From an uncultured Bdellovibrionales bacterium (lineage in GTDB: Bacteria > Patescibacteriota > Minisyncoccia > Moranbacterales > DUUL01), in NCBI GenBank assembly GCA_964393045.1, contig CAYMRZ010000001.1, forward strand, positions 2,102 to 41,202: 39,101 bases of DNA, in the 5' to 3' direction. The notes beneath the pieces are model-generated. The model was not told the origin of the DNA. It worked only from the letters and a program-made list of their open reading frames with translations, and did no database searches. Positions 1,629 through 39,101 of this stretch are shown here, piece by piece; within the stretch, counting starts at the first letter, position 1, and each line of letters begins with the position of its first letter. The position numbers and the translations under genes are program-made.

Positions 1629-1730
1629 CTTATTGGGAATTAGTTGGTTGGCTTATTAGCAGAGAGCGGTTTTAATGATTTGGAATTCCCGCTAATATAA
1701 ATTACTTATAATTTATGTAACAATAAAAAT

Positions 1731-2528: not shown

Positions 2529-3685
2529 AAATCGGTTATTTTACCAACACTTATCTTCCCAATGAATACGGATCTACTAATTCCATCCGCTATTTTCGCA
2601 AAGGACTGGAAAAGCTTGGTCATGAAATTTATATTTTTGCTCCTAAATTTAGAGGCTACGAGGAGCAAGATGACCACGTGATCCGCTACCCTTCTTTTCA
2701 CTGGCAATACAAAATAACTTACCCAATCGCTTTTTGTTTTTATCCGCCGATGAATTTAATTTTTAAGAAATTAAATTTAGATTTAATTCATTCTCAGCAG
2801 CCTTTTAATGTGGGCGTGGCTGGAAAAAAATTTGCTGAAAAATTTAATTTGCCTTTAATTTTTACTTATCATTGCCGTTATGAAGATTATATCCATTATA
2901 TTCCGCTGCCTTTTAAGGAACTAGTTAGAAGGTATGTCGTTTCTCATGCAAAAAAGTTTGCCAATCAGTGTGATCAAGTGATTGCTCCTAGTTCTCAAAT
3001 TAAAAATATTTTACAACAGCGGGGCGTCTCTGCGCCAATTGAAGTTTTATCTACTGGCATAAATTGGAAAAAATTTCAACAAGGAAATAGGGAAGCGATA
3101 AGAAGGAAATATGGAATTAAAAAAGAAGAGATATTGCTGTTGAATATAGGACGAATTGAAAAGGAAAAGAATATCAATTTTCTCTTTAATAGTGCTGTGG
3201 AAGTATTAAAATTTAATAATAAAATTAAATTAATGATGGTGGGCGACGGTTCGGAAAAAGAGCAGCTGAAGAAGAAAGCGCAAAGGGAAGAATTGAGTGA
3301 GAGAATTATTTTTTCTAATCTGGTAGCCCAAAAAGATATTGCGGATTATTATGCGGCCGGAGACATATTTATTCACGCCTCTCTTTCGGAAACCCAGGGA
3401 ATTACCATTAATGAAGCGATGGCAGCTGGTTTGCCCATAGTAGCGGTTAGAGCCAGTGGAGTGGAAGATTCTATTGAAAGCGGCTATTCTGGCATACTTA
3501 CTGAAAATAACCAAAAAGTTTTTACTGAAGAAATAAAAAAAATAATAAAAAACGAGAGTCAAAGAAAAATTTTATCCCGAAATACCCGAGAAACAGCCAG
3601 GAATTTTGACTACATGACAAAGGCCCAAAAAATGGAAAAAATTTACCAAAATTTGATAAATAGTGCTAAAATTAAAAATAGATAA
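2525..3685 (+). CDS. Glycosyltransferase family 4 (GT-B, group 1)
   Basis: 386 aa. N-terminal MKIGYFTNTYLPNEYGS and the C-terminal E-x7-E region SLSETQGITINEAMAAGLPIV are typical of GT4 enzymes. Translationally coupled to the upstream hydrolase. Confidence 0.85.
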   Translation: MKIGYFTNTYLPNEYGSTNSIRYFRKGLEKLGHEIYIFAPKFRGYEEQDDHVIRYPSFHWQYKITYPIAFCFYPPMNLIFKKLNLDLIHSQQPFNVGVAGKKFAEKFNLPLIFTYHCRYEDYIHYIPLPFKELVRRYVVSHAKKFANQCDQVIAPSSQIKNILQQRGVSAPIEVLSTGINWKKFQQGNREAIRRKYGIKKEEILLLNIGRIEKEKNINFLFNSAVEVLKFNNKIKLMMVGDGSEKEQLKKKAQREELSERIIFSNLVAQKDIADYYAAGDIFIHASLSETQGITINEAMAAGLPIVAVRASGVEDSIESGYSGILTENNQKVFTEEIKKIIKNESQRKILSRNTRETARNFDYMTKAQKMEKIYQNLINSAKIKNR

Positions 3686-3700
3686 TCAATAATTTTTTAA

Positions 3701-4951
3701 ATGAAAGTCAGTTTTCTTGCCATTATTGGATTACTGGTCAATGCTATTTTAACTTTGCTGAAATTGGTAGCCGGATTTTTATCCGGTTCAGTAGCTATTT
3801 TAGCGGAAGGCATTCATTCTGCAGCTGATGTTTTTTCTTCCTCGGTAGCGGTATGGGGAATTAGAAAAGCGGGAAAACCGGCAGATGAAAAGCATCCCTA
3901 TGGCTATGCCCGATATGAGTCATTGGCCAGTTTGGTAGTAGTTTTGTTGTTGATTATTGGTGCTGCTTGGATTATTTATGAGGCAGTAAAATCGATAACC
4001 AGCGGTGAAGAAATAGCGGAATTTAGCTTGCTGGGAATAATTATTATGGCGATATCCATTGTTTTAAATGAAATAATGGCGCGCTTAAAATTTCATTTTG
4101 GCTCTAGGCAAGGATCCCAAGTACTGGTGGCTGACGGACAGCATGACCGGGCGGATGTAGTGGCTTCTGCTGCTGTCTTAGTAGGTTTAATTCTAGTTAA
4201 ATGGATCCCCGTGGCAGATGCCATTTTAGCTATTTTAGTCGGCCTTTATATTCTTTACGAATCAATTGATCTAACCAAGGAAAGCGTGGAGTCTCTAGTA
4301 GATACTGCTAATCCGGATTTGGAAGAAAAAATTAAAAAATACTTGAAAGAAAATAATCTCGAATTTGATGAGATTAAAACTCGGAAAATCGGGAATTCAA
4401 ATTTTGCGGAAATATTCTTGGTTTTTGGCGATAAAATTCAAATGGATAAAGTAGATACTATTTTAAGGAAATTGCAAAATGATTTGCTTAAAAAAATTAA
4501 CGAATTAACCAGCGTGACTTTGTCAGTAAAATCTCATTCCGTTAGGTCTGGCGTGCTCCGGCCGGCTGTTTGGGGCAAATTCCGCTATCGCAGAAAAATA
4601 GAGAAAGAAAGAGAAAAGCTGAATGTTCCCAAAGTAGAAGGGGATTACCGAGTGGCTATTCCGCTCCTAGAAGACAAAAATAAAATTCCTCCTAATCAGC
4701 TAGGGGCTAAATTTTATTTATTAATTGATTTAAAAAATAATAAAATTATAAAAAAAGAAACAATAAAAAATGATTTTTATACTCCCGAGGCGGGTAGGGG
4801 AGTAAAGTTTTTAAATAATTTTCGGGTGAATAAAGTTTTAGCCAAACATATTGGCAAAGGGGCCAAGGAAAATCTAAAAGGGAAAAATATTGAGTGGGAA
4901 GTTCTGGAAGACGAAACTACATTAGAAAATATTTTGGATAGGTACAGATAA
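3701..4951 (+). CDS. Cation diffusion facilitator (CDF) metal efflux transporter with a C-terminal NifX/NifB-like (Nitro_FeMo-Co-type) extension
   Basis: Six hydrophobic segments. CDF metal-site motifs are HSAADV (H-x3-D) and HDRADV (H-D-x2-D), followed by a cytoplasmic CTD. About 110 extra residues follow (YRVAIPLLEDKN...GRGVKFLNNFRVNKVLAKHIGKGAKENLKGKNIEW) and resemble the small NifX/NifB-type domain. Confidence 0.8.
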   Translation: MKVSFLAIIGLLVNAILTLLKLVAGFLSGSVAILAEGIHSAADVFSSSVAVWGIRKAGKPADEKHPYGYARYESLASLVVVLLLIIGAAWIIYEAVKSITSGEEIAEFSLLGIIIMAISIVLNEIMARLKFHFGSRQGSQVLVADGQHDRADVVASAAVLVGLILVKWIPVADAILAILVGLYILYESIDLTKESVESLVDTANPDLEEKIKKYLKENNLEFDEIKTRKIGNSNFAEIFLVFGDKIQMDKVDTILRKLQNDLLKKINELTSVTLSVKSHSVRSGVLRPAVWGKFRYRRKIEKEREKLNVPKVEGDYRVAIPLLEDKNKIPPNQLGAKFYLLIDLKNNKIIKKETIKNDFYTPEAGRGVKFLNNFRVNKVLAKHIGKGAKENLKGKNIEWEVLEDETTLENILDRYR

Positions 4952-4956
4952 AATTT

Positions 4957-6156
4957 TTAGTTACAATTTACAACCTCTTCAATTTTCATTGTTGCATCAA
5001 TAGTGTGTTGCATATTATCAACTCGAATCCTATCATCTCCTTTTTTATATCTAATCCCACCAAAGATTTTTGCTTTTTTATACTTTTTATCATCCATTTC
5101 TTTCTCTTTAAATTGTAAACTTTCTAAATTTTTAATAGCTAGCTTTAAAGATTCAAGATATTTGTTTTTGTGCTCTTGGTCTCTAGCACTAACTGCTATT
5201 TCATAAGCATAAGCTAAGCCTTCGGTATAAACTGCATCTGAGGAAACATGCGGACTTCCATACTCCGGGTATTTGGGATTATAGAATCTTCCAAGATATT
5301 CTTTTTTATCTTGTATTTTCACAAGTTCATCATTCATTGTAAAGATAGCTTCAATATAATTATTATCTTTAGTGATTTTATATAATTTATTAAGTGATTG
5401 GGTGTGCCAAGGCACGTAAGCAGGATAGTAGTTTTCTTTGATATTTTTTACATACTTTTTCAAATAAAAATTTTGGGCCAGAATTGCTTTTTCTAAATAA
5501 TATTTATTCCCAGTTTTATTATAATAATCGACTAAGGAAAGTATAGCTTCGCCAGAATAGAAAGTAAGCAAATAATCTTTGTCATATTTATAGTCAGGTT
5601 CAATAAAAAAGGGTTTAAATTCTCCTTCTTTATTCATTGAGTTTGTTATGCTCGTGGCAATTTTTTCTGCTTCATTTTTATACTGTTCAAACCAGGGACT
5701 ATAAGTTAATGTTCTGAGGAACATAGCGTTAGCTCCCAATTTTGATTTATTGTTATAGAAAATGTAGCCTTCATTATCCCTCTCTTTGTACCAATATTTA
5801 AAAATAAATTCCAAGTTTTTTTTATGGTAATTTAAAAATATTTCATCATTACTCTTGGCTAATTTGGCTGCTAAAGCAGAAGTCATGAGTTGGCGGATAG
5901 CGTTGTTTTTATTTGGAAATTCATCTTCCTGGGGAATATAAATATAATGCCATAAGCCTTTATTTCTAAAATTATTTTTCAACCATTCAATGGCAGCACT
6001 TCTTATTTCCTTGTTTTTCAAGCAAAGGTCTTTATGACTTTTTATCTCTGATAAATCTTTGTTAATTCCTTGTTTTTTAAATTGTAGAAAGATAAAGGAA
6101 AAAAGGAAAATAAGTAGAAAGATAGAAATAATAAAAATTATTTTTTTTGAATACAT
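4957..6156 (-). CDS. Membrane-anchored hypothetical protein, possibly an (alpha/alpha)6-toroid fold
   Basis: 399-aa ORF filling the gap between convergent genes, with one N-terminal TM (IIFIISIFLLIFLFSFIFL). Repeated aromatic-rich helical segments (GEAILSLVDYY, GLAYAYEIA) are present. The fold call is weak. Confidence 0.55.
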   Translation of the reverse strand: MYSKKIIFIISIFLLIFLFSFIFLQFKKQGINKDLSEIKSHKDLCLKNKEIRSAAIEWLKNNFRNKGLWHYIYIPQEDEFPNKNNAIRQLMTSALAAKLAKSNDEIFLNYHKKNLEFIFKYWYKERDNEGYIFYNNKSKLGANAMFLRTLTYSPWFEQYKNEAEKIATSITNSMNKEGEFKPFFIEPDYKYDKDYLLTFYSGEAILSLVDYYNKTGNKYYLEKAILAQNFYLKKYVKNIKENYYPAYVPWHTQSLNKLYKITKDNNYIEAIFTMNDELVKIQDKKEYLGRFYNPKYPEYGSPHVSSDAVYTEGLAYAYEIAVSARDQEHKNKYLESLKLAIKNLESLQFKEKEMDDKKYKKAKIFGGIRYKKGDDRIRVDNMQHTIDATMKIEEVVNCN

Positions 6157-6171
6157 TTTAATTATTTATTT

Positions 6172-8325
6172 TTATTCCCAATGAGCGTTAATCTCCAGCT
6201 TTTCCAGCTGGTTTTTTAATTTTGGAAACTTTTGTAATTCCTTATCAAAGCTCAATACTCGCTGAGCTTCCATGCGTGCTGCTTGAATACTTTTTACATC
6301 AGAAAGAGATTCCATAGCTACATCTGGCAAGCCGGATTGCATGGTGCCTAAGAATTGCCCAGGACCGCGCAAGTGTAAATCTTCTTTGGCAATTTTGAAA
6401 CCGTCATTGGTTTTTTCCATGGCTTTCAGTCGTCGAGTAGAATCGCCTACACTTTCTGAAGTAAACAAAAAACAATAAGATTGGTGCTCGCCGCGACCGA
6501 CTCGCCCGCGAAATTGATGAAGCTGGGAAAGTCCGAAACGCTCTGCTCCCTCAATCAACATAATAGTAGCGTTGGGAATGTCGATACCCACTTCTACCAC
6601 CGAAGTAGAAACTAAAATATCAATTTTTTTATTTTTTAATTTTTTCATAACCTGGTTTTTTTCTGCTGGCTTGATGCGGCCGTGCAACAATCCCAATTTG
6701 AAATCTTGAAATATATTTTTTTGCAGCCATTCAAACTCCTCAGCAGCGGCTTTTACTTCGGAAATTTTAGAAGACTCCTCCACTAAAGGGCAGATGATGA
6801 AAGCTTGGCGTCCGGATTGAATTTGCTGTTTAACAAAATTATAGATTTGATCCCGCCCCTTTTTGCTGATTACTTGGGTAATGATTTTTTTTCTTCCTTT
6901 TGGCATTTCGTCGATAATGGATAGATCTAAATTGCCAAAAATTGCCAATGAAAGGGAGCGAGGAATGGGCGTGGCTGTCATAGTAAGTAAGTGAGGAGTA
7001 GTTTTTGATCGGCCGTCATCCAGCGTAGAAGTTTTTTGTTGTAAATAAGCGCGTTGGTTTACTCCAAAGCGGTGCTGTTCATCAATAATAACCAATGCCA
7101 GATTTTTAAAATTAACCTGGTTCTGCAGGATGGCATGAGTGCCAATTACCAAATCAATTTTGCCTTTGGCAATTTTTTCCAACAATATTTTTCTAGACAC
7201 TTTCTTCCCATTAATTCTTTTTTCTGAGGCGGTTAATAAAGCTATTTTAAAGCTGTAATTTTCAAAAAATTTTTGTATGTCTCGGGCATGCTGGATAGCC
7301 AAAACTTCTGTGGGAGCCAGCAAGGCAGCTTGGAATTTTTTATTAATAACCGAAAAAATCGCCATGGCTGCTACCACTGTTTTCCCGCTGCCCACATCGC
7401 CTTCCAGGAGCCGGTTCATAGGAATGTTTTTTTCCAAGTCTTGAATAATCTGCCAAGCAGATTTTTTCTGGGCATTAGTCAAATCAAAGGGAAGATTTTC
7501 CACGAATTTTTTTATTATCTTTTCATTGAATTTTATTTTCAGAGCTTGCTTTTTTTGCCAATCTCCCTTGGTTTGCAGTGCCTTTAGCTGAATTAAAAAC
7601 ATTTTTTCAAAAGCAAAACGTTTTTTGGCCTCAGAAGAATCTTTTAAATTAGCAGGAAAGTGAATTTTTCGCAGAGCGGATTTTAGATTGGTTAATTCCT
7701 GGGAGTTTAGAATATCTTGGGGGATAAATTCTTCTATCTTCACTTGGTTGAGAAGTTTTTTTATAATCCTCCTCAGCCAATAGGAAGTGATCCCGACTGT
7801 TTCCGGATAAATGGGAATCAATGAGCCAGTGGCAGTGTTATTTTTTCCTTCTGCAACATTATGCTTGCCAGACATGCTGACGGTAGCACTAGGGACATGG
7901 TTAAATTGCGTTTTGGAAAGCATTTCAAAATTAGGATGCTGGAAATAAGGTTCGTTTTTTTTGGTTGATTTTACTGTTCCGCTAAGCTGGACATATTTCC
8001 CCTTAGACAGAAACTTTACGGGCAAAGGATAATTGAACCAAACGGCTTTGATAACGCCGGTTTCGTCCTCAATATAAGCTTCAGTAATAGTCATTCTTTT
8101 TTTCCAGGTGCGAGTAGTTTTAATGCTTTTCACCCTCCCTTTAGTGGTAACAGTTTCTGATAAATTAATTTTACTGATTTTTTTTGTCACGGAAAAATCA
8201 TCATATCGATGGGGAAAGTGATACAATAAATCGCTGGCAGTAGAAATATTTAAGCTTGCCAATTTTTTAATCTGGTTTTTATTAATTCCAATAATTTTTT
8301 TTACCGGCGTATCAAAGTTATACAT
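6172..8325 (-). CDS. recG: ATP-dependent DNA helicase RecG
   Basis: 717 aa with an N-terminal wedge/OB region. Helicase motifs are GDVGSGKT (Walker A), DEQHRFG (motif II), TATPIPR and QLHQFRGRVGRG (motif VI). Confidence 0.93.
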   Translation of the reverse strand: MYNFDTPVKKIIGINKNQIKKLASLNISTASDLLYHFPHRYDDFSVTKKISKINLSETVTTKGRVKSIKTTRTWKKRMTITEAYIEDETGVIKAVWFNYPLPVKFLSKGKYVQLSGTVKSTKKNEPYFQHPNFEMLSKTQFNHVPSATVSMSGKHNVAEGKNNTATGSLIPIYPETVGITSYWLRRIIKKLLNQVKIEEFIPQDILNSQELTNLKSALRKIHFPANLKDSSEAKKRFAFEKMFLIQLKALQTKGDWQKKQALKIKFNEKIIKKFVENLPFDLTNAQKKSAWQIIQDLEKNIPMNRLLEGDVGSGKTVVAAMAIFSVINKKFQAALLAPTEVLAIQHARDIQKFFENYSFKIALLTASEKRINGKKVSRKILLEKIAKGKIDLVIGTHAILQNQVNFKNLALVIIDEQHRFGVNQRAYLQQKTSTLDDGRSKTTPHLLTMTATPIPRSLSLAIFGNLDLSIIDEMPKGRKKIITQVISKKGRDQIYNFVKQQIQSGRQAFIICPLVEESSKISEVKAAAEEFEWLQKNIFQDFKLGLLHGRIKPAEKNQVMKKLKNKKIDILVSTSVVEVGIDIPNATIMLIEGAERFGLSQLHQFRGRVGRGEHQSYCFLFTSESVGDSTRRLKAMEKTNDGFKIAKEDLHLRGPGQFLGTMQSGLPDVAMESLSDVKSIQAARMEAQRVLSFDKELQKFPKLKNQLEKLEINAHWE

Positions 8326-8498
8326 AAGGCATTAAGAGTAAATTTTATTTTTTAAGCAGAAAAGAACTATTTAACTTAACTAAGCTAAACTATAAAAAAA
8401 CTGAATTAATTTTAACAAAAAAGTGCCAGAAAAGAAAATTTTTTACTTTGAGTAATATTTTTTTAATTTTACAACAGAGCTACCTTTTTCAAGAAAAG

Positions 8499-8534
8499 AA
8501 AACCGTCCTTTATTTTTAAGTGGACGGTTTTTTG
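8499..8534. terminator. Bidirectional rho-independent terminator
   Basis: AAAACCGTCC (8499-8508) pairs with GGACGGTTTT (8522-8531) across a 13-nt loop. An A-run precedes it and a T-run follows. It lies 13 nt downstream of the minus-strand 63-aa ORF. Confidence 0.7.
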
Positions 8535-8546
8535 ACGTTTAGGTTA

Positions 8547-8738
8547 TCAGACGATAGCAGTCGTTTTTTCTGTCTTTAGTCGTTGGATCTCTTCTTCACA
8601 ATGGATAAATCTTTGACATCTTGGACAGACATTTCCTGGGGCTCCTAAAACATAGCCGCGTTCCTCTAGGAATTGTTCCTCCTTGGGGATTTTAAAGATG
8701 TTGCTGCATAAAGGACAAAAGGTCTCTATCATTTCCAT
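8547..8738 (-). CDS. Small zinc-ribbon protein (CxxC...CxxC), hypothetical
   Basis: 63 aa with CPLC and CPRC pairs. It has a strong SD (AAAAGGAGAAAATAC ATG on the minus strand) and its own terminator. Confidence 0.6.
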   Translation of the reverse strand: MEMIETFCPLCSNIFKIPKEEQFLEERGYVLGAPGNVCPRCQRFIHCEEEIQRLKTEKTTAIV

Positions 8739-9127
8739 GTATTTTCTCCTTTTCGAATTATGGGGTTATTAAAAAAAGAGCAAGTTTTTATTATAAACGA
8801 ATTTTGATATTTGTCAAGCCCTGGAATTTACAATAATAACAATATAGCAACATAATGATATATCATTAAAAAGTTATTTTAAGGCTTGTTTTTTGCAGAA
8901 AGATTAAAACATTCCAATAACTATTGGAATGTTTACAGATTTCTATTACACCTTTTCTATGGAAATTTCCAAGATTGTAATTTTGGAAGTAACAATGGGG
9001 AATTATAGCCTTGGCATTAATTTCAAGAACTTAAACATTTTTAATGTAAACAATAGACATAATATAAATTAGTAAATTTTAAAACAGGAGATTAATGGAA
9101 AAAGGCGGTGATAGGCCGTTTACTCTT

Positions 9128-9155
9128 TTGACTTTTCCTTAAAATAAGCTATAAT
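9128..9155 (+). promoter_or_regulatory. Sigma70-like promoter upstream of the tRNA-Lys locus
   Basis: TTGACT (9128-9133), 16-nt spacer, TATAAT (9150-9155). Confidence 0.5.
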
Positions 9156-9286
9156 TTAATTAAGTAACTAGTGGGAGTATGATAAAAAGGCTTGGCAATA
9201 TATAATCTTTATTTAAAATTTATTTTCCAAAATTATATATTTCCAGGCTTTTATAAATATTTTAAAAATAAAAATTAAACTGATAT

Positions 9287-9340
9287 GCCCCTATAGCTCA
9301 GCTGGTAGATCCGCCAGCCGGCGGACTCTTAAGCCGACGT
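9287..9340 (+). pseudogene. Truncated tRNA-Lys(CTT) 5' copy carrying a perfect hairpin in place of the D-stem 3' strand and anticodon-stem 5' strand
   Basis: Nt 9287-9309 are identical to tRNA-Lys positions 1-23. Then comes TCCGCC-AGCC-GGCGGA (9311-9326). Then CTCTTAAGCCGACG, which is identical to the anticodon loop plus 3' stem strand. There is no T arm or acceptor 3' strand. It sits 29 nt upstream of the intact gene. Confidence 0.7.
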
Positions 9341-9369
9341 TTCTAATACTTAACTTAATATAAATATAT

Positions 9370-9442
9370 GCCCCTATAGCTCAGCTGGTAGAGCAGCGGC
9401 CTCTTAAGCCGACGGTCCCAGGTTCGAGTCCTGGTGGGGGTA
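9370..9442 (+). tRNA. tRNA-Lys (anticodon CTT), CCA not encoded
   Basis: Hand-folded 73-nt cloverleaf: GCCCCTA/TGGGGGT acceptor, GCTC-AGCTGGTA-GAGC D arm, anticodon loop CTCTTAA, T arm CCAGG-TTCGAGT-CCTGG, discriminator A. Confidence 0.9.
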
Positions 9443-9528
9443 CAAATCTCAATTTTTAGTTTAAAATTTTAAATTTACAACGCCCCCTCCCTTAGTTGAA
9501 GTAAATACTTAAAACAAAAAATAATTCT

Positions 9529-18765: not shown

Positions 18766-18890
18766 ACTTTTCTATTTCTCTCCACTCGGAAATGACAAGA
18801 ACGGGGAATAGGAAGAGATTAGTTCCGTAAATATTTATAACATTGTAGGGGCGCAAAATTTTGTATCCGTTAAAAAATAAAAACACAAAA

Positions 18891-20621
18891 ATGAACGAAA
18901 ATGAAATAGATAAAAAGAATATCATATATGATAAATCCTCAAATATCGTTAGCAAGAAGATTAAATTTAAATTATTTATTAAAGAAAATTATAAATTTCT
19001 TATTTTTATATTAATTTTAACTGCTTATTATCTATCTCCTTTATCTATTTTCTTTTGGAATCGTGCATTGATGTTTTTAATACATATTTTTTTATTTCCT
19101 TTTTTTCTTATGCCAGAGGATTCTTTTATTATTTCTGCTGGTTATGCTCCAGGAGTAATTCCCAATCCTTTTACAATTGCATTTGCAATTTTTATTTCAT
19201 CGGTTTGGATAATGGTTTTTTCTTTCTTGATAAACCTTATTGCTAAAAAATTGAAAATCAAAAGTATTTTAGTTTTTATACTAGCTATTTTAATTTTTTT
19301 AGTTTTAGGTGGTTTTGGCGAGCAGAATATTTGTGAAAGAGATTTTGAATCTTATAGGAATGAAAAAGGAGAAAAATATTTAAAAAATCTCGGTGTTATT
19401 CATTTTGTTGTAGATACAAATATGAAAAGGGGCTTAGATTTTTTCTATAAATTAAATGGATTAGAATATATTTCTGGAGATTCAAATAATGGTAGGATTT
19501 TAGCAAGAATAAAATCAGGGGATGAATATAGAAAGATATGTCAAATAAAAGCTTATAGGCAGGTTTATGAGGGTACTACTCCGATGGAGGAAAGTGGTTT
19601 GTTCTTTATTAATAATCAAGAATATTGGAATCTAATAGATAATAATTTTTGTGAAACTGATCAATTAGTTAATCACAGCAAAGAAGATTGTTTGAAGAGT
19701 ATAGAAAAAGGCTTCATGCATAAAGGAGAAACTGATTCTAGAGATAAAATACTGCCCCTTACAGAAGAATATACTAATGATTTAATAGCCTTTAGTTATC
19801 CAAAAAGTTGGCACATTTTCAAAAAAGAGGAAGATGGGAAAGGAACGGTTCGAATAAGCAAGAGTGTTGATGGAAATTTTAAATTATATGCATTAATTGA
19901 TGTCTCAAAATGTGTCCCTTCCCTTGAGACAATTGGGGAACAACTATTAAAAAAACAAGAAGAGGGAGAACTTGATAGTAATTATTATCCAAAGGGTGTA
20001 GAAAAAGTAGAAATTGGAGATTTTAATTTTTATAAATATATACAAAGTGATAAAAAGTATGGCTCCGAGGAAACTAATTATGAAGCCAAAGTAAATGGTA
20101 TCTACCTTATCAATATCAGTGTTTTTCATACTGGTTATGATGACTATATTGATGACATAAAAAGAATGATTGAGACAATAGAACTTCCAGATAATTCAAA
20201 AGTTGAACTAATTGACTATGAGGATAATTTTTTGAAAATTTCTTACAATAAAAATGCTTATCAGTTTTCAAAAGCTGATTCAACAGATGTTAATACAATT
20301 TATGAATTAAAAAATGTTAATAAAAAAGAGCAATCTCTTGTTAGGGGAGTTATATATAAGGGATTTGAAGAACATTCTCTTGATGATCGCTATAATATTT
20401 TTGTTAGTCAAGGGAAAACAACTAATTCAAAACATCAAAAAATTAAGCTTGGCAAGTATGAATTTATCAAAACAAAAGACGCTAATAATTCGTTTACTCA
20501 GTATACCACTTTTATAGGTTTGTATGAGGTAAACTTTGTATTAGACTATGGTAAGGCTGGTATGTATATGAAAGACGAAAATCTTGAAAATATATTAAAA
20601 ACTCTAGTGTTAAAAATATAG
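18891..20621 (+). CDS. Hypothetical membrane protein with a large extracytoplasmic region (possible PsbP/DcrB-like repeats)
   Basis: The listed ORF 18861 starts at TTG. The first ATG, at 18891 (MNENEIDKK), is preferred. Several N-terminal TM segments are followed by about 400 aa containing two FSYPKSW / ISYNKNAY-type segments. The sequence is very AT-rich. Confidence 0.6.
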   Translation: MNENEIDKKNIIYDKSSNIVSKKIKFKLFIKENYKFLIFILILTAYYLSPLSIFFWNRALMFLIHIFLFPFFLMPEDSFIISAGYAPGVIPNPFTIAFAIFISSVWIMVFSFLINLIAKKLKIKSILVFILAILIFLVLGGFGEQNICERDFESYRNEKGEKYLKNLGVIHFVVDTNMKRGLDFFYKLNGLEYISGDSNNGRILARIKSGDEYRKICQIKAYRQVYEGTTPMEESGLFFINNQEYWNLIDNNFCETDQLVNHSKEDCLKSIEKGFMHKGETDSRDKILPLTEEYTNDLIAFSYPKSWHIFKKEEDGKGTVRISKSVDGNFKLYALIDVSKCVPSLETIGEQLLKKQEEGELDSNYYPKGVEKVEIGDFNFYKYIQSDKKYGSEETNYEAKVNGIYLINISVFHTGYDDYIDDIKRMIETIELPDNSKVELIDYEDNFLKISYNKNAYQFSKADSTDVNTIYELKNVNKKEQSLVRGVIYKGFEEHSLDDRYNIFVSQGKTTNSKHQKIKLGKYEFIKTKDANNSFTQYTTFIGLYEVNFVLDYGKAGMYMKDENLENILKTLVLKI

Positions 20622-31907: not shown

Positions 31908-33716
31908 TTATAATTTTCCACCGCTTCTTTTGGCTCGAATTCTTTCATTTTCATTTAGATATTTTTTTCGCAGCCTCACGCTTTTAGGAGTTATTTCCAG
32001 ATATTCGTCGCCTGATATAAGCTCCATTCCACGTTCAATGGTAAGATCCATGGGAGGGATAAGCTGGATAGCATCATCGCTTCCACTGGCGCGCATATTG
32101 GTCAGTTGTTTTCCTTTAATGGGATTAACAGTCATATCGCATCCCTTGGCAGTATCGCCGATTACCATTCCTTCATAAACTTCCGTCCCAGCTCCAATAT
32201 ATAAGTTTCCTCTATTTTGTAAATTAAACAAGGAAAAACCCAATGCCTTGCCATTGATCATCGAAATCATTGATCCGGGCTGACTTTTCCTTATTTCTCC
32301 TGCCCAAGGGCGAAATTCTAGAAAACGAGTACAGAAAATTCCTTCACCTTTAGTGTCAACTACAAACTGGCTCCGATAACCAAACAGGCCCCGAGAGGGA
32401 ATTTCAAAAATCATTCTAGCATGCCCGTTGTTTTGTTTCATTTCTGTCATCACGCCTTTCCTCTTTCCTAATTTTTTAATAATAATTCCTGAATATTCTT
32501 CCTTTACATTGATAGTGACCTCCTCGTAAGGCTCCATTGTTCCCTCTTTTTGTTTTTTAATAATGACTTGAGGCTGAGAAATTTGAAGTTCGTAGCCTTC
32601 ACGCCTCATATTTTCAATTAAAATGGCAATATGAAGTTCTCCGCGTCCGGAAACTTTATAAAATTTATTAGATGAAAAATCAACTTTCAATCCTACATTG
32701 ACCTCCAGCTCTTTTTTCAAGCGTTCCTTGATTTGTAAATTTGTTACCAAGCTGCCTTCCCGGCTGGCGAAAGGTGAGTCGTTTACCAAAAAATTTAAGC
32801 TGATAGTTGGTTCGTCAATGATAATATTTGGCAGAGTTTTTTGACTTTTATTATTGCAAATAGTTTGACCGATATAAACATCTGGTAATCCGGCAATCAT
32901 TACAATATCTCCCTGAAAAGCTTCTTTGATTTCTTTTTTTTCAACTCCATGAAAGGTAAAAATTTTAGTTATGTACCCTTTTGAAATTTTTCCATCAGTT
33001 TTTTTAATTAACACAGCATCTCCGCTAGAAATTTTTCCTTTATAAATTCTTCCAATTGCCAGGCGCCCTAAAAAATTGTCATAAGCTAAATTAAAGGGCT
33101 GTAAAAGAAAATTTTCTTTAATCAAACTTGATTCATCTGAACTTGAAGCAGCAGGAACTTTTTCTATAATTAAGTCCAAGAGGGGATTGAGGTTATTATT
33201 TTTGTCTTTTAATTTTAGCTTGGCAATTCCTTGTTTGGCATTAGCATAAACAGTAATAAAATCAAGTTGTTCATCATTGGCGCCAAGGTCCAGAAATAGT
33301 TCATAAACCATTTCCTCCACTTCGGCTGGCCGGGCAGCCGGTTTGTCGATTTTATTTAAAACTACAATTGGCTTTAAGCCTAACTCTAAAGATTTTTTTA
33401 AAACAAAACGGGTTTGAGGCATAGGGCCTTCTTGCGCATCTATCAACAAAATCACGCAGTCGATAGCACGCAGAACGCGCTCTACTTCAGAGCCAAAGTC
33501 GGAATGGCCAGGCGTATCAACAATGTTAATTTTATTGTTTTTATAAATAACGGAAGTATTTTTTGAATAAATAGTAATTCCGCGCTCTTTTTCTAAGTCA
33601 TTGCTGTCCATTGAATATTCATCACAGGCAATTCCTGTCTGTCTCATCAAGGCGTCAGTTAGGGTGGTTTTTCCATGGTCGACATGAGCAATAATGGCAA
33701 TATTTCGTATTTTCAT
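31908..33716 (-). CDS. typA: Translational GTPase TypA/BipA
   Basis: 602 aa with G motifs [17 protein letters not shown] and NKIDK. It has EF-G-like domains and the BipA-type C-terminus. Confidence 0.93.
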
Positions 33717-33992
33717 AATTTAAGATTATCAAATGTTTTTCAAAAATAAAACCGCCCTTATTCTCGCAAAGGCGGGAATTTAAATGAAGATTAAATTAAA
33801 ACAGATTAATTATAGATTAAAATAAATCAAACGTCAACTGAAATTATAGCTGAAAATTATGGATAATCAATACAAGTTGTAATATTTTTTAGAAAAGATA
33901 TAATTAACGGAAAGACACTAGCGTTACTTGTAATAAAATTATCTAGCCAAAATTAACTGAATTGATATTGTTATTTAATTATAAATTAGAAA

Positions 33993-34166
33993 ATGGATAA
34001 AATCAAAGTAGAAAATCACAGCTTTACTGCTTTTTCCTGGGTAGCTGGTTGGCTTTTCACTGTTGGATTTTTAGAGTTGGCTTTTTGGAAAGGATTGATA
34101 GCTGTTTTGCTTTGGCCATACTTTATCGGTCAAGTGATTCATGATGTGGTAAAATTAAATGTTTAA
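33993..34166 (+). CDS. Small membrane protein (57 aa), hypothetical; below the ORF-track size cutoff
   Basis: ATG 33993 to TAA 34164-34166 translates to MDKIKVENHSFTAFSWVAGWLFTVGFLELAFWKGLIAVLLWPYFIGQVIHDVVKLNV, with two hydrophobic helices. No SD is seen. Confidence 0.4.
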   Translation: MDKIKVENHSFTAFSWVAGWLFTVGFLELAFWKGLIAVLLWPYFIGQVIHDVVKLNV

Positions 34167-34321
34167 CAAATAGTATAATTTTTTTAGCTTGCTTTATCCT
34201 TGTGAATAAGTTAAAATCTTAGAGTGGAAATTATTTTTTTGCTGAAAGCATTTGGTTGTTGTCGGGAGAGGTTGGCTAGTTATTGGTTTAAAAATTTAAA
34301 ATTATAAATTAAAATTTACAA

Positions 34322-34499
34322 GCCCCTTTAGCTCAATTGGATAGAGCATCTGGCTTTCCTGCCCGCCGTACAAGCCCTCGTGGTGAAATGGATATCACGC
34401 TTGGCTTCGGACCAAGAATTTCGGGTTCGAATCCTGACGAGGGTACGGCTTGGCAGGCGGGGGATCAGAAGGTTGAGGGTTCGAGTCCTTCAGGGGGTA
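34322..34499 (+). tRNA. Interrupted tRNA (identity ambiguous: Pro/Gln/Glu depending on junction) with a 104-nt intervening sequence in the anticodon loop
   Basis: The 5' part (34322-34353) has acceptor GCCCCTT, D arm GCTC-AATTGGATA-GAGC and stem strand TCTGG. The 3' part (34465-34499) has TCAGA, variable AGGTT, T arm GAGGG-TTCGAGT-CCTTC, acceptor AGGGGGT and discriminator A. 111 nt lie between the two anticodon-stem strands, where 7 are expected. Confidence 0.65.
34374..34445 (+). tRNA. tRNA-Arg (anticodon TCG), nested inside the interrupted tRNA; CCA not encoded
   Basis: Hand-folded 72-nt cloverleaf: GCCCTCG/CGAGGGT acceptor, GTGA-AATGGATA-TCAC D arm (A20 present), CTTGG-CTTCGGA-CCAAG anticodon arm, variable AATT, T arm TCGGG-TTCGAAT-CCTGA, discriminator A. 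Confidence 0.85.
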
Positions 34500-34537
34500 T
34501 GTTGTTACAAGAAAATTACTTGAATACTGTCTTATAT

Positions 34538-34619
34538 AGAAAGTCGAGAGGGTTCGCCCTATCATACGATAGGGCGCCATGTTGAATAACATGGCGAGTC
34601 CTTCAGGGGTACGTTGTTA
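34538..34619 (+). pseudogene. Partial copy of the 3' third of the interrupted tRNA, with a 40-nt twin-hairpin insertion in the T loop
   Basis: AGAAAGTCGAGAGGGTTCG, then a 40-nt insert (34557-34596), then AGTCCTTCAGGGGTACGTTGTTA. This matches AGAAGGTTGAGGGTTCG|AGTCCTTCAGGGGGTATGTTGTTA of the gene 40 nt upstream. No 5' half precedes it. Confidence 0.7.
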
Positions 34620-34907
34620 GCTTTTTAGAATTTAGCTTTTTGGCTTATTAAACAAGAAAATTTTATTAATTTGCCTGTGAGTCTTTGAGCAGCAACAAAT
34701 TAATAATCCTGCAATTAAGCTTGCTTTAGCGGAAGAATAGAGTTGCTGAACGGCCCTAAAAGTTTTCAGGGTAAAAATCTTTTGGGGAGGTACTAATTAA
34801 ATTTTTATTTTATAAAAAACTGGGCTAATTTACTTCATGGTTGTTGCTCGGTTTTTTTATAAAAACAAAATTTGTGATAAAATAGAAATAAATCCGTAGT
34901 AAACTAT

Positions 34908-35768
34908 ATGAAAATATTTAAAAAGATACTTTCCATTCTGTTTTTATTGGCAGTTTTATTTTTTGTTTCTAGAATTGTGGATTTTGATTTTTCAAAATTC
35001 AGCTTAAAGCCGGATATAAAAAAGAAAGAGAAGGCCTTTGTTGAGGAAAAATATCAAACTCCTATTCTCAGAAATGAAGAGCAAGATCAAATCCAAGAAA
35101 GAGAATTCCAGGGGACAGAGCTAGAGATTATCGAATTAGTTAACCAGGCTCGTTTCAAAGAAGAATTGCCAGCGCTTAAAAAAAATGAAAAATTAATGCA
35201 ATCAGCTTTGTTAAAAGCTGAAGATATGAAAGAAAAAAATTATTTTGAGCATGTTTCTCCGGAAGGATTGCAGCCTTGGTTTTTTGCGGAAAAGATAGGC
35301 TATAAATATAAAACATTTGGTGAAAATTTAGCAGAAGGATTTTTTAACTCTCAAAGCGTACATGAAGCTTGGATGAATAGTGCAGGGCATCGGAAAAATA
35401 TTCTAGGAAAAGACTTTGAAGAAATAGGCATTGGCATCACTGGCTTTGAACAAAATGGAATGAAAAGCTATATTATTGTTCAGCATTTCGCTTCCAAGCT
35501 TGCAGAAAAAGATTTGGAACCTCAAGTGGTTTGTGATCAAGATGTAAAAGAAAGCTGTGAAAATGCAAATGAGAAAGAGAAAGAAATAGACGATGTAGTT
35601 GATGAACAAAAGAAGGAGATTAAAAAAGCTAAAAAAGCCGGCGCTTCCAAAGAAGATATAGAGAAAATGGAAGACAACCTGGATGACTTGGAAGAGATGG
35701 ATGACAACATAGATGAATACTTGGATGATTGCGAAAATTATATAAAAAAGTGCGATAAATGGGAATGA
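34908..35768 (+). CDS. CAP/SCP (PR-1-like, YkwD-type) domain protein with N-terminal anchor and acidic C-terminal tail
   Basis: 286 aa with an N-terminal TM. The CAP core has LVNQARFKEELPAL, YFEHVSPEG, GENLAEGF and HEAWMNSAGHRKNIL. The tail is rich in D/E/K. Confidence 0.85.
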   Translation: MKIFKKILSILFLLAVLFFVSRIVDFDFSKFSLKPDIKKKEKAFVEEKYQTPILRNEEQDQIQEREFQGTELEIIELVNQARFKEELPALKKNEKLMQSALLKAEDMKEKNYFEHVSPEGLQPWFFAEKIGYKYKTFGENLAEGFFNSQSVHEAWMNSAGHRKNILGKDFEEIGIGITGFEQNGMKSYIIVQHFASKLAEKDLEPQVVCDQDVKESCENANEKEKEIDDVVDEQKKEIKKAKKAGASKEDIEKMEDNLDDLEEMDDNIDEYLDDCENYIKKCDKWE

Positions 35769-35891
35769 TATGTTGTTTTGACAGTTTATTCTTTCTAGAC
35801 TATTATTAGGTTAAAAGAATTTATAATTCCTGATTATTATATTCAAATGTGTATTAGTGACTTAAGCCCTGACAATTTTTAAGACAAAAAA

Positions 35892-37240
35892 ATGTTACAG
35901 TCGAAACTTTTTGCTCCGATGGCCAAAGAAGCCCCCAAGGACGAGGCTAGCTTAAACGCCCAAATTTTAATCCGGGCTGGTTTTATTGATAAAACATCAG
36001 CCGGTATTTACAGCTTGTTGCCATTAGGTTGGAAAACAACAGTAATTTTAATATTAATACTAAAGTTAGTATTATAGTACCAGTATATAATGTTGAAAAA
36101 TATTTAGAAGACGCTTTATCATCCTTAGTCAATCAAACATTAAAAAACATTGAAAAAATAATCCGCCAAGAAATGAAAAAAATGGGCGGCCAAGAAATTT
36201 TTTTGCCTGCTTTGCATGTCAAGAAAAATTGGGAAATGACGGGACGCTGGGAGAGCTTGGATGTTCTTTTTAAATTAAAGGCAGGAGAAAGGAAGGAATT
36301 TGCCTTAGGGCCGACTCATGAAGAGATCATCACTCCCTTGGTTAAAAAATATATTAATTCTTACCGGGATTTGCCAGTTTATCTTTTTCAATTTCAAAAT
36401 AAGTTCAGGAACGAAAAACGGGCTAAATCTGGTCTAATCCGTGGGAGAGAATTTTTAATGAAAGATTTATACTCTTTCCACAAAAACGAAAAAGATTTAA
36501 ATGATTATTATGAAAAAGCAAAAAAAGCTTACGAAAAAATTTTTGAGCGCTGCGGCCTTGGAGAACGGACTTATTTGACTTATGCTAGTGGCGGAACTTT
36601 TTCAAAATATTCCCATGAATTTCAAACAATAACTGAATCCGGAGAAGATTTAATTTATATTTGCCCGAACTGCAAGGTAGCGATAAACAAGGAAATCCTG
36701 AATGCCCAAAACGCTCAATGCTTGGAATGCGGTAATACTAAGTTAAAAAAGGAGAAAGCTGCTGAGGTGGGCAATATTTTTAAGCTTAAGGATAAATTTA
36801 GCCGGTCTTTTAATTTGAATTATCTAAATCAAAAAGGAGAAAAAAAGCCGGTTTTGATGGGTTGTTACGGGATAGGACTACAAAGAATGCTTGGCACGAT
36901 AGTAGAGGTATGCCATGACGAAAACGGAATTATTTGGCCAGAGCAGGTTGCTCCTTATCAAATTCATTTAATTAGCCTGTTTGGCAATGAAAATAAGAAA
37001 ATTAAGGAATATTCTAGAAATTTGTACCAACAGTTAAAAAACAAAAAAAATAAAGTTCTATGGGATAATCGTGAAGATGTAAAAGCAGGAGTTAAATTTG
37101 CCGAAGCAGATTTAATTGGAAGTCCTTGGAGGTTGGTAGTTAGCGAGAAAACTTTTGCGAATGAAAAGGTTGAAATAAAAAATCGAAATTCTGACCAGTC
37201 AGAGTTACTAGACAAAGAAGAAATTTTAAACAAATTTTAA
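35892..37240 (+). CDS. proS: Proline--tRNA ligase (bacterial type without the INS editing domain), reading frame interrupted by a 101-nt insertion after codon 49
   Basis: Frame A (35892..) gives MLQSKLFAPMAKEAPKDEASLNAQILIRAGFIDKTSAGIYSLLPLGWKT, a typical ProRS N-terminus, and then stops at 36075-36077. Frame B resumes at 36140 with LKNIEKIIRQEM...GPTHEEIIT...REFLMKDLYSFH...GCYGIGLQR plus the anticodon-binding domain. Removing 36039-36139 restores one continuous ProRS ORF. Confidence 0.85.
36039..36139 (+). other. 101-nt insertion in proS flanked by the AAACA direct repeat; encodes a GT2 glycosyltransferase N-terminal fragment
   Basis: AAACA occurs at 36034-36038 and 36135-36139. In the downstream proS frame the insert reads NSNFNINTKVSIIVPVYNVEKYLEDALSSLVNQT, the canonical GT-A/GT2 N-terminus. 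It contains a perfect 9-bp hairpin, TAATACTAA-AG-TTAGTATTA (36055-36074). Confidence 0.8.
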
Positions 37241-37244
37241 TTAG

Positions 37245-38300
37245 ATGTTATTAGATAAATTATTTGGGAAATTTTCAAAAGACATTGGCATTGACTTAGG
37301 CACAGCCAATACTTTAGTTTACGTAAGAGGAAGGGGTATTGTTATTAATGAGCCGTCAGTAGTGGCCTTAAATAAAAAAACCGGCCAAATACTTTCCATA
37401 GGAAAAGAAGCCAAAAAAATGGTTGGCAAAACTCCTTCTCATATTGTGGCCGTTCGACCGCTAGTAGACGGTGTGGTTTCAGATTTTGAAATAACGGAAC
37501 AGATGCTTAAGTATTTTATTGGCAAGGTTCATCAAGACGGTTTTAGTTTTTTAGCTAAACCGAGAATTTTAATTGGAATTCCTTCAGGAGTAACAGAGGT
37601 AGAGAAGCGGGCAGTGATTGATGCAGCTATTAGTGCTGGTGCTAGAGAAGCCTATTTAATTGATGAGCCCATGGCAGCCGCTATTGGCGCTCGCTTGCCT
37701 GTCCAGGATGCCGCTGGCAATATGATAGTGGATATCGGCGGCGGGACCACAGAAGTGGCGGTGATTTCTTTGGGCGGTGTTGTGAGCTGTAAAAGCTTAA
37801 GGATTGCCGGTGATGAAATGAATGAAGATGTAATTCGATTTGCCCGGGACGAGTATAATTTATTGTTAGGGGAAAAAACCGCAGAAGAAATAAAAATTTC
37901 CATTGGCAATGCTTATCAAGGTAATGAAAAACAATTAGCGATAATGCGTGGCCGGGACTTGATCAGCGGCTTGCCGAAAGAAATAAAAATTTCTGATAGT
38001 GAAATGAGAAGGGCTTTATCCCGATCAATTAGAATAATAGTTAATAGTATTCGCTCTACCATTGAAGACACGCCGCCAGAATTAATTGGAGATATCATGC
38101 AGCGAGGAATTATAGTTGCCGGAGGAGGAAGCCTTATAAAGGGCCTGGATAAATTAATAGCCGAACAAACTGAAATGCCAGTTAATCGGATGGAAGATCC
38201 TCTTACTGCCGTAGTTCGTGGCACAGGCATTGTTCTCGAAAACTTAGAAAAATTAGAAGATGTTTTGATTGAAGCGCCGGACGAAAAAAAATTAAGATAG
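37245..38300 (+). CDS. mreB: Rod shape-determining protein MreB
   Basis: 351 aa, actin-like (GIDLGTANT, EPMAAAIGA, DIGGGTTEVAVIS, VAGGGSLIKGL). Confidence 0.95.
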   Translation: MLLDKLFGKFSKDIGIDLGTANTLVYVRGRGIVINEPSVVALNKKTGQILSIGKEAKKMVGKTPSHIVAVRPLVDGVVSDFEITEQMLKYFIGKVHQDGFSFLAKPRILIGIPSGVTEVEKRAVIDAAISAGAREAYLIDEPMAAAIGARLPVQDAAGNMIVDIGGGTTEVAVISLGGVVSCKSLRIAGDEMNEDVIRFARDEYNLLLGEKTAEEIKISIGNAYQGNEKQLAIMRGRDLISGLPKEIKISDSEMRRALSRSIRIIVNSIRSTIEDTPPELIGDIMQRGIIVAGGGSLIKGLDKLIAEQTEMPVNRMEDPLTAVVRGTGIVLENLEKLEDVLIEAPDEKKLR

Positions 38301-38304
38301 AAAA

Positions 38305-39101
38305 ATGGTTAAACTAAATTCAAAAACAAAATATTTTTGGTTTTTCTTATTGTTTCTTTTATTAGTAGTAATAGTTATTCGGGCTAATCAAGGAAAGCCT
38401 CCTGCGAGCAATATAATACATGGATTTTCCTCTCCTGTTGCTAAATTTTTTTCTGCAGTCGGTTTTTGGTGTTCTGAAAAAATTGATTTTATATTTTCTA
38501 TCGGCAATTTAAAAGAAGAGAATGAACAACTACTAAAGGAAAACGTTAGGCTGAAATTTACTTTAGCTGATTACAAGGATATCGAAAAAGAAAACGAACA
38601 ATTAAGAAGAGAGCTGAATTTAAAACCTCGAGTAGATTACCAGATGGAGCCCGCATTAGTAATCGGAGAAGACATCAGTAATCGTTCCGAAATGATAATA
38701 ATAGACAAGGGCTCTAGAGATGGCCTTTGGGAAGGAGCACCGGTTTTGTTGGAAAAGGGAATTTTGATTGGACAAGTCAAAAAGATTTATTCAAATCAGT
38801 CAGAAGTAGAGCTTATTCTTAGTCAAAGAAAAAATATAAACGCAGAAATTGAAGAAAGTTCGGAGCGGGGGATTGTCCATGGAGAATATGGTACTTCAGT
38901 AGTAATGGATATGATTCCTCAAACGGTAGAGGTCAAGAAGGGAGACACTGTTATAACTTCAGGCCTAAGTGATAATATTCCCAGAGGATTGCTAATCGGC
39001 TATGTGAAAGAAATAACTCCCGCAGCCGATCAGCTTTTTCAAAAAGCCTCTCTTAATCTTCCTCTGGATTTAAATAAAATTAGGCTGGTTTGGGTAATTA
39101 A
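38305..39101 (+). CDS. mreC: Rod shape-determining protein MreC (3' end off-window; not in the ORF track because no stop is reached)
   Basis: ATG 38305 lies 4 nt after the mreB stop. My translation is MVKLNSKTKYFWFFLLFLLLVV..., followed by the coiled-coil LKEENEQLLKENVRLK and then GDTVITSGLSDNIPRGLLIGYV, typical of MreC. The frame stays open to the window end. Confidence 0.85.
   Translation, partial: MVKLNSKTKYFWFFLLFLLLVVIVIRANQGKPPASNIIHGFSSPVAKFFSAVGFWCSEKIDFIFSIGNLKEENEQLLKENVRLKFTLADYKDIEKENEQLRRELNLKPRVDYQMEPALVIGEDISNRSEMIIIDKGSRDGLWEGAPVLLEKGILIGQVKKIYSNQSEVELILSQRKNINAEIEESSERGIVHGEYGTSVVMDMIPQTVEVKKGDTVITSGLSDNIPRGLLIGYVKEITPAADQLFQKASLNLPLDLNKIRLVWVI

Follow-up and report, generated by a model that had tools for sequence, protein, structure and literature searches.

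The alanyl-tRNA synthetase (AlaRS) of Nanoarchaeum equitans is split, and the known split aminoacyl-tRNA synthetase genes are separate, conserved and independently expressed. In T4 gene 60, which is read by translational bypassing, the gap is 50 nt long and the stop codon directly adjoins the take-off codon; the mitochondrial byps of Magnusiomyces have gaps of 27-55 nt. Most of the chimeras generated by multiple displacement amplification (MDA) are single inverted junctions. Short templated patches are also inserted in living cells by SPDIR (short-patch double illegitimate recombination), in which ectopic patches of 3 to approximately 100 bp, taken from intragenomic or extragenomic single-stranded DNA (ssDNA), enter at microhomologies or at extended microhomologies with mismatches, with a frequency in wild-type Acinetobacter of approximately 1e-12 to 1e-13 (bioRxiv 10.1101/2023.11.22.568220). 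The locus described here lies on a stretch of 39,101 nt (the window) of contig CAYMRZ010000001.1, assembly GCA_964393045.1, where proS, the gene for prolyl-tRNA synthetase (ProRS), is broken by a 101-nt insert that originates from the 5' end of a family-2 glycosyltransferase (GT2) gene. The reading we favour, with a probability of roughly 0.5, is that the patch is a chimera made outside the cell, either by template switching during amplification or library preparation or by a local assembly error.

The first open reading frame (ORF) of the locus, 35892-36077, encodes 61 amino acids (aa). It runs as far as the TAG at 36075-36077, and residues 1-49 of its product are the N-terminus of ProRS; the remainder of ProRS follows in another frame, as was read in the initial annotation of the window. 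Deletion of 36039-36139 gives an open proS of 415 codons, in which ...LPLGWKT is followed directly by LKNIEKIIRQEM. There are six equivalent placements of this deletion (shifts of -5 to 0), all giving the same repaired gene, because AAACA is present at both 36034-36038 and 36135-36139; the boundaries can thus slide to the left by up to 5 nt. The uninterrupted junction DNA is ...GGTTGGAAAACATTAAAAAACATTG... In a Pfam scan the repaired protein matches the class II core PF00587 at 130 bits and the HGTP anticodon-binding domain PF03129 at 55 bits. It aligns with the solved bacterial-type ProRS 5znj and 2j3l from residue 1 onward, the first 49 residues 1:1; the alignment to 5znj (E = 8.5e-96) covers residues 1-226 and 255-409 and passes over the junction without a gap. 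It is also approximately 60% identical to thousands of ProRS from Patescibacteria, which are 405-430 aa long. By both domain content and colinearity, the host gene is a bacterial-type class II ProRS gene. The ProRS lineage to which it belongs (approximately 410-420 aa, in Patescibacteria) is without the INS editing domain of bacterial-type ProRS. In place of INS there is a short zinc-ribbon-like CPNC...(15 aa)...CLEC, at 36662-36730 in the window, and the solved structures align only on its two flanks.

The nearest genome found was GCA_964602335.1, with approximately 90% nucleotide identity to the window, and two of its contigs, L001 and L082, were compared. The longer of the two reading frames left by the insert, a chimeric ORF of 403 aa, is present in a public protein collection as P0001, assigned there to an NCBI contig of 41,202 nt. 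The 90% cluster of P0001 has one other member only, P0121 (415 aa, GCA_964602335.1, locus L001), which is uninterrupted. The junction in P0121 reads ...LPLGWKTLKNIEKIIRQEM..., so that the prediction that removal of 36039-36139 restores the conserved spacing of ProRS was borne out by the relative's own gene. The gene order in L001 is that of the window, namely the CAP-domain protein gene, proS, mreB and mreC. The blastn alignment with L001 falls into two blocks, one of 87.7% identity (34105-36038) and one of 90.5% (36135-39101), the latter gap-free over 2967 nt, and the break at 36038/36135 is precisely the site of the insert. L082 spans window positions 1-9443 at approximately 90% identity, and the six ORFs within 1-8442 are equal in length to within one residue. 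The lengths of the CAP-domain protein gene, mreB and the partial mreC are also kept, and the insert in proS is the only disruptive difference in approximately 14 kb of comparable sequence. No corresponding gap was found in proS of the L001 relative or in 119 more distant ProRS homologues. The insert is not conserved and is specific to one assembly. Synteny with L001 breaks further upstream, at approximately 33720-34120 in the window against 1-425 in L001. The common part there is the last 20 or so codons of a small membrane ORF (33993-34166), upstream of which the relative has a different ORF of 94 aa and then the end of the contig, and the window has bipA/typA (31908-33716, minus strand).

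The rest of proS is under strong constraint. Once the insert is removed both proS genes are 1248 nt long, with no further indel or stop. Between the window and the relative the ratio of nonsynonymous to synonymous divergence (dN/dS) for proS is 0.05 at a dS of 0.59; for codons 1-49 it is 0.019 and for the remainder 0.052. The comparison genes gave 0.063 (mreC) and 0.091 (the CAP-domain protein gene). The peptide upstream of the insert differs from that of the relative by one residue (A11V). When the 27 aa differences between the two ProRS were polarised with 119 outgroups, the derived state was found 9 times in the window and 17 times in the relative, and the window ProRS keeps the consensus at strongly conserved sites, with no derived change there. 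Residues 1-49 are 64% identical to the outgroups and the remainder 60%. Judged by these substitution patterns, purifying selection acted on proS in full until practically the present day. The dN/dS values and the relative-rate counts exclude an old pseudogene. Since there is no excess of aa change, a low dN/dS and no second lesion, the insert must have arrived extremely recently, unless it is not biological at all.

Read in the frame of the downstream part of proS, the insert translates as (E)NNSNFNINTKVSIIVPVYNVEKYLEDALSSLVNQT, also given as ENNSNFNINTKVSIIVPVYNVEKYLEDALSSLVNQT. Residues 14-45 of the 403-aa ORF match positions 1-32 of the 168 of PF00535 (Glycos_transf_2) at 26.5 bits, compared with a cut-off of 23.3, and the match spans the right joint, taking in the first eight ProRS residues. 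As only positions 1-32 are covered, the insert is a 5' fragment of a GT2 gene and not a whole gene. A phmmer search returned 5422 representatives at E<=1e-3. The best GT2 relatives have 84% aa and 82% nucleotide identity to the insert, and annotated GT2 genes on plasmids have 76-78% nucleotide identity. Pfam scans of all window ORFs of at least 120 aa found no PF00535 gene, and both observations agree with the initial annotation, which had recognised a GT2 N-terminus and noted that no GT2 gene is in the window. Neither the window nor the 32 kb of the relative that were scanned gave a second copy of the insert. The composition of the insert was considered as a test of foreign origin and is not diagnostic: its GC content is 23% and its GC content at third codon positions (GC3) is 14%, the 3rd percentile of host coding windows, but its synonymous codon choice is host-typical (67th percentile).

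The exact microhomology that can be demonstrated directly against the relative is the 5 nt AAACA. At the right joint the similarity goes further. DNA alignments to GT2 genes extend 16-23 nt beyond 36139, into proS, and over the 21 nt that follow the insert the mean identity to 52 GT2 genes of its subtype is 71%. An exact run across the right boundary is present in 25 of these 52 genes (3-14 nt, and at least 8 nt in 23 of the 25). The right joint is therefore an extended microhomology of more than 5 nt. GT2 N-termini generically go on ...SLVNQTLKNIEIIVVNDGS, and within AAACATTAAAAAACATTGAAA, where the right joint lies, the GT2 sequence NQ-TLKNIE-II ("NQTLKNIEII") resembles the ProRS sequence K-TLKNIE-KII ("KTLKNIEKII"). 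The likeness of GT2 and ProRS over T-L-K-N-I-E is a chance similarity at codon level, situated exactly at the target site. Because of it the insert is necessarily in frame with the downstream part of proS, and the long "remodelled" ORF is accordingly incidental, not designed. For the left joint, at ...TGGAAAACA, a plausible conjecture is that proS GGT TGG AAA ACA was matched to a presumed GT2 start ATG GAA AAC AAC AGT (ATGGAAAACA). The presumed donor would then start ATGGAAAACAACAGTAAT... and go on ...AATCAAACATTAAAAAAYATTGAAAT. Of the longer microhomologies that had been claimed at both joints, the right one is backed by the comparison of GT2 genes and the left one (TGGAAAACA) stays conjectural. 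The anatomy as a whole fits the proposal of a copy of approximately 100 nt that was made, via microhomology, from a GT2 gene's 5' end.

The searches for a donor covered public collections and not the window's own genome, and their negative results do not argue against an intragenomic donor. An exact match to a 40-mer taken from the insert was found neither among GTDB representative genomes nor among JGI metagenomes. Degenerate back-translations of YLEDALSSLVNQT (13 aa) and EDALSSLVNQT (11 aa) were absent from metagenome and viral contigs. A word-indexed protein search with the insert gave short GT2 fragments only, at no more than 84% identity, and phmmer against 1.84 billion representatives gave generic, mostly multi-domain GT2 proteins with no donor among them. 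A pattern scan of GTDB with an alignment of the GT2 N-terminus had best matches of 83% aa and 82% nucleotide identity, in scattered low-GC taxa. A donor just upstream of the window, where the contig is 2.1 kb longer, was also considered and rejected. The GT2 gene which the relative has at that place (L082 8895-10004) is of the DPM1/GtrA type, with the N-terminus LTILLPTFNEKDNI, and is of the wrong subtype. This GT2 gene is directly upstream of the relative's counterpart of a PMT_2 (GT39/ArnT-like) gene that occupies window positions 1-1628, the window starting 118 nt inside it. In the relative (L082 5402-11755) three PMT-like genes stand in tandem, the PMT_2 gene at the end, with the GT2+GtrA (polyprenyl-phosphate sugar synthase-like) gene in between; as in the window, an S33 hydrolase gene and a GT4 gene follow the cluster. 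The relative's allele is also present on a Logan contig from SRR14492187.

Table 1. Features of the interrupted proS locus, in window coordinates.
Feature	Position	Strand	Remarks
proS, interrupted	35892-37240	+	Split by the 101-nt insert, frame lost
proS 5' segment, ProRS codons 1-49 (MLQSKLF...LPLGWKT)	35892..36038	+	Colinear with P0121/L001 and with PDB 5znj/2j3l from residue 1
Chimeric 403-aa ORF, TTG start; 36 GT2-derived residues and ProRS residues 50-415, in frame	36029..37240	+	
AAACA microhomology, left copy, containing ACA 36036-36038 ("take-off")	36034..36038	+	Sequence and L001 alignment
101-nt insert (2 mod 3), 5' fragment of a GT2 gene	36039..36139	+	Missing from the L001 orthologue; PF00535 match
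9-bp A/U-rich hairpin inside the insert (TAATACTAA / TTAGTATTA)	36055-63 / 36066-74	+	Belongs to the minimum free energy structure
Premature TAG in the proS 5' frame, 13 codons past ACA 36036-38	36075..36077	+	ORF reading
AAACA microhomology, right copy, containing ACA 36137-36139 ("landing")	36135..36139	+	Sequence common to GT2 and proS starts here
proS 3' segment, codons 50-415 and stop; motif-1 helix, class II core, Zn-ribbon-like CPNC...CLEC, anticodon-binding domain	36140..37240	+	PF00587, PF03129

The patch breaks the frame of a conserved essential gene and nothing suggests that it is read through, and we therefore think that the interrupted gene is not the organism's working proS. Such a break should be lethal in a reduced Patescibacteria genome, because ProRS residues 1-49 are conserved like the remainder and are colinear with the solved structures, and an allele of this kind would a priori be unlikely as the majority allele in vivo. 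We infer that the switch took place in vitro or in silico rather than in vivo. A single non-conserved patch of 101 nt would have been copied from the first 37 or so codons of a GT2 gene and spliced into proS, with a polymerase or a single strand switching templates twice at microhomologies. Entry would have been via two short joints that used the similarity between GT2 and proS, the left at ...TGGAAAACA and the right within AAACATTAAAAAACATTGAAA.

Several points weigh against this reading of the patch as a chimera from outside the cell. For a join, de Bruijn assemblers require k-mers of at least 21 nt in common, and no more than approximately 9 nt can be shared at the left joint; a purely in silico join is therefore hard to produce, and there are probably reads that hold both joints. 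Chimeras in a library are as a rule scarce, and assemblers discard them as paths of low coverage; the remaining window looks well assembled. The host-typical codon usage of the insert agrees with a donor from this very genome and would suit an event in vivo just as well, and the donor GT2 gene was not found in any collection searched. Finally, the assembled sequence would look alike after an event in vitro and after one in vivo. Of the origins put forward initially, both a chimera and a recent pseudogene allele stay live.

A real event in the cell is the next best explanation; it is possible, although we consider it less likely than a chimera from outside the cell. In this case ssDNA copied from a GT2 gene's 5' end, whether in the organism's own genome or in DNA taken up, would have annealed at the two microhomologies, in their extended form where there is one, at the replication fork and been built into the nascent strand, as in SPDIR. 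The product would be a very fresh proS null, assembled from a minority genotype, from a polyploid cell which also holds a wild-type copy, or from the DNA of dead cells. Three features fit SPDIR: a patch of 101 nt, exact homology over 5 nt, and a likeness of GT2 and proS that extends further at the right joint. As regards size and hallmarks, the insert of 101 nt is without terminal inverted repeats or other copies. As regards the joints, the 5 nt AAACA is demonstrable, at the right joint GT2 genes and proS are 71% identical across 21 nt, the longest exact run being 14 nt, and the left joint is conjectural as long as there is no donor. Both joints must presumably exist in real molecules, since assemblers would not join on 5-9 nt, the codon usage of the insert is host-like, and the lack of decay elsewhere in proS would mean that the event was very recent. 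Set against this are the SPDIR frequencies of approximately 1e-12 to 1e-13 and the consideration that a null allele cannot rise to a majority where the gene is essential and present in one copy. The allele is in no second assembly, the other member of the two-member cluster is intact, and the collections searched yielded no donor.

It is unlikely that the insertion is real and fixed and that proS is here a young pseudogene, its function having been taken over by a second ProRS elsewhere, for example one of the archaeal type. The sequence inspected for this question was the 39-kb window and the two contigs of the relative. There is no sign of relaxed selection and no secondary lesion in proS, and the relative keeps its copy intact and strongly constrained. 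Reduced Patescibacteria genomes normally have one gene per aminoacyl-tRNA synthetase, which also speaks against a second ProRS.

Less likely still, the patch is in the sole proS allele and yet a working ProRS is made: by a hop from ACA to ACA, by a -1 frameshift, by non-covalent reassembly of the 61-aa fragment and the GT2-tagged 403-aa fragment, or from the 403-aa ORF alone. Such expression would draw on the identical codons ACA 36036-38 and ACA 36137-39, 101 nt apart, with an A/U hairpin and a stop downstream of the first, both of which are present in the sequence as initially noted. The junction peptide of an ACA-to-ACA hop would be LPLGWKTLKNIEK, and the peptide MENNSNFNINTK is the alternative to this bypass peptide and to the -1 fusion peptide. 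The two frames overlap by 49 nt (36029-36077), and a single -1 shift anywhere in the overlap fuses them into a full-length product with an internal insertion of 34 aa. A Shine-Dalgarno (SD) test of the TTG at 36029 was uninformative, since host genes are largely without SD motifs, and for the same reason an internal TTG start is not dismissed on SD grounds. Split aminoacyl-tRNA synthetases, moreover, occur in other reduced genomes. On the other side, the matched ACA codons are trivial, being an automatic by-product of the AAACA present at both joints. The first in-frame stop, the TAG at 36075-77, is 13 codons past the take-off ACA and not adjacent to it. The minimum free energy of the RNA at 36020-36160 is -15.4 kcal/mol, compared with -14.6 +/- 3.1 for shuffled sequences (z = -0.26); at the take-off site there is a 4-bp helix only, and the A/U hairpin is 17 nt downstream of the take-off codon. 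No slippery heptamer X XXY YYZ was found when the codons of 36027-36077 were read in frame 0. Far from being a dedicated element, the insert consists of plain coding sequence that belongs to another gene, and the nearest relative lacks it. The suggestion of bypassing in the manner of T4 gene 60 is not supported by these observations. Nor is that of an N-terminally remodelled enzyme initiated at TTG 36029, because the 49 residues that it would lack are conserved and correspond 1:1 to the solved structures, and its ORF is a by-product of the right joint.

That the insert is a small mobile element, resembling a miniature inverted-repeat transposable element (MITE), or an intron-like element with a 5-bp target duplication is the least probable explanation, for although AAACA stands as a direct repeat on both flanks, it lacks terminal inverted repeats, a second copy (looked for in the window and 32 kb of the relative), an exact 40-mer match in GTDB representative genomes or JGI metagenomes, and any particular structure, the content being ordinary GT2 coding sequence. 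An insertion sequence or MITE was rejected for lack of inverted repeats and other copies.

A second interruption lies upstream of proS. At window positions 34322-34499 (L001 629-806) there is a cloverleaf tRNA whose anticodon loop is interrupted by approximately 104 nt. The outer tRNA has the acceptor strands GCCCCTT/AGGGGGT, a D-arm, the anticodon stem TCTGG/TCAGA and the T-arm GAGGG-TTCGAGT-CCTTC. The interruption contains a complete tRNA-Arg(TCG), at 34374-34446, which stands on a helix of approximately 14 bp that extends the anticodon stem. Rfam and ARAGORN recognise the inner tRNA alone on the intact locus, and ARAGORN calls the outer tRNA once the interruption is removed. Only Pro anticodons (GGG/UGG) are consistent between the window and the relative, and from its sequence the outer tRNA looks like tRNA-Pro. 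The nested arrangement is kept in the relative, where all three stem substitutions preserve pairing; the spacer beside it (34500-34545) is strongly diverged. The interruption is too short for a group I intron, and it may be asked whether the inner tRNA is released by RNase P/Z and the two halves are then ligated. It had been remarked that the tRNA-Pro and proS would both carry insertions of approximately 100 nt. The tRNA does look like tRNA-Pro, but its interruption is also present in the relative, where proS is intact, and the two insertions are therefore unrelated events: that of the tRNA is old and conserved, and that of proS is a one-off.

Next to the nested tRNAs, at 34546-34612 (L001 approximately 855-921), is a second, partial copy of the 3' end of tRNA-Pro (GAGAGGGTTCG ... 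GAGTCCTTCAGGGGTA). Its T-loop is split by approximately 40 nt, folded into a tandem pair of hairpins of 8 bp each (34557-34576 and 34577-34596), and it is kept in the relative with one compensatory change of C-G to U-A. It gave no Rfam match, and could be an integration-site remnant at a tRNA 3' end or a small structured RNA. Elsewhere in the window, the ORF at 18861-20621 (586 aa, TTG start) has no Pfam match and a GC3 of 0.19, by far the lowest in the window (other genes 0.24-0.48), and may be recently acquired or fast-evolving.

The interruption of proS is mainly a matter of quality control, in that an essential gene in the public record is broken by a foreign patch of 101 nt. The ProRS/GT2 "fusion" P0001 in the public collection is not to be taken as biology. 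If the allele were genuine, it would be a rare natural insertion of a short templated patch, SPDIR-like, in an uncultivated bacterium, and the microhomology of donor and target would be explained by the chance codon-level likeness of two unrelated protein families. The biology of recoding or of split enzymes would be touched only in the unlikely case that ProRS continues to be expressed.

Of the known systems, the split aminoacyl-tRNA synthetases, such as AlaRS of N. equitans, share with this locus the occurrence of such an enzyme as two ORFs in a very small genome. The ORFs of proS, however, overlap out of frame through a foreign patch that the nearest relative lacks. The locus resembles T4 gene 60 and the Magnusiomyces byps in that a non-coding gap interrupts an essential ORF, the take-off and landing codons are the same, and a stop and a hairpin lie downstream of take-off. 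It differs from both in the length of the gap (101 nt), in the non-adjacent stop and in the absence of a stable stem-loop at take-off, and its gap is a fragment of another protein-coding gene which is not kept in the relative. Compared to T4 gene 60, the upstream peptide is normal ProRS, with no special nascent-peptide signal to point to. With chimeras from MDA or the polymerase chain reaction (PCR), and with assembly errors in metagenome-assembled genomes, it shares short-microhomology junctions between unrelated loci, occurrence in one assembly only, and the disruption of an intact gene. Unlike a typical MDA or PCR chimera, the patch needs two switches in one molecule, which must moreover dominate locally. 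The likeness to SPDIR, as the 2016 study is represented in bioRxiv 10.1101/2023.11.22.568220, lies in an ectopic stretch of no more than approximately 100 bp whose source gene is unrelated to the target, two illegitimate joints at microhomologies and the lack of mobile-element features. Set beside the cases presented there, the proS patch is a pure insertion at the upper size limit, its target is essential so that the product would be lethal, and it may well have arisen outside any cell. Whether lesion or artefact, the interruption looks like a fresh instance of an already known kind, and not a new way of decoding genes.

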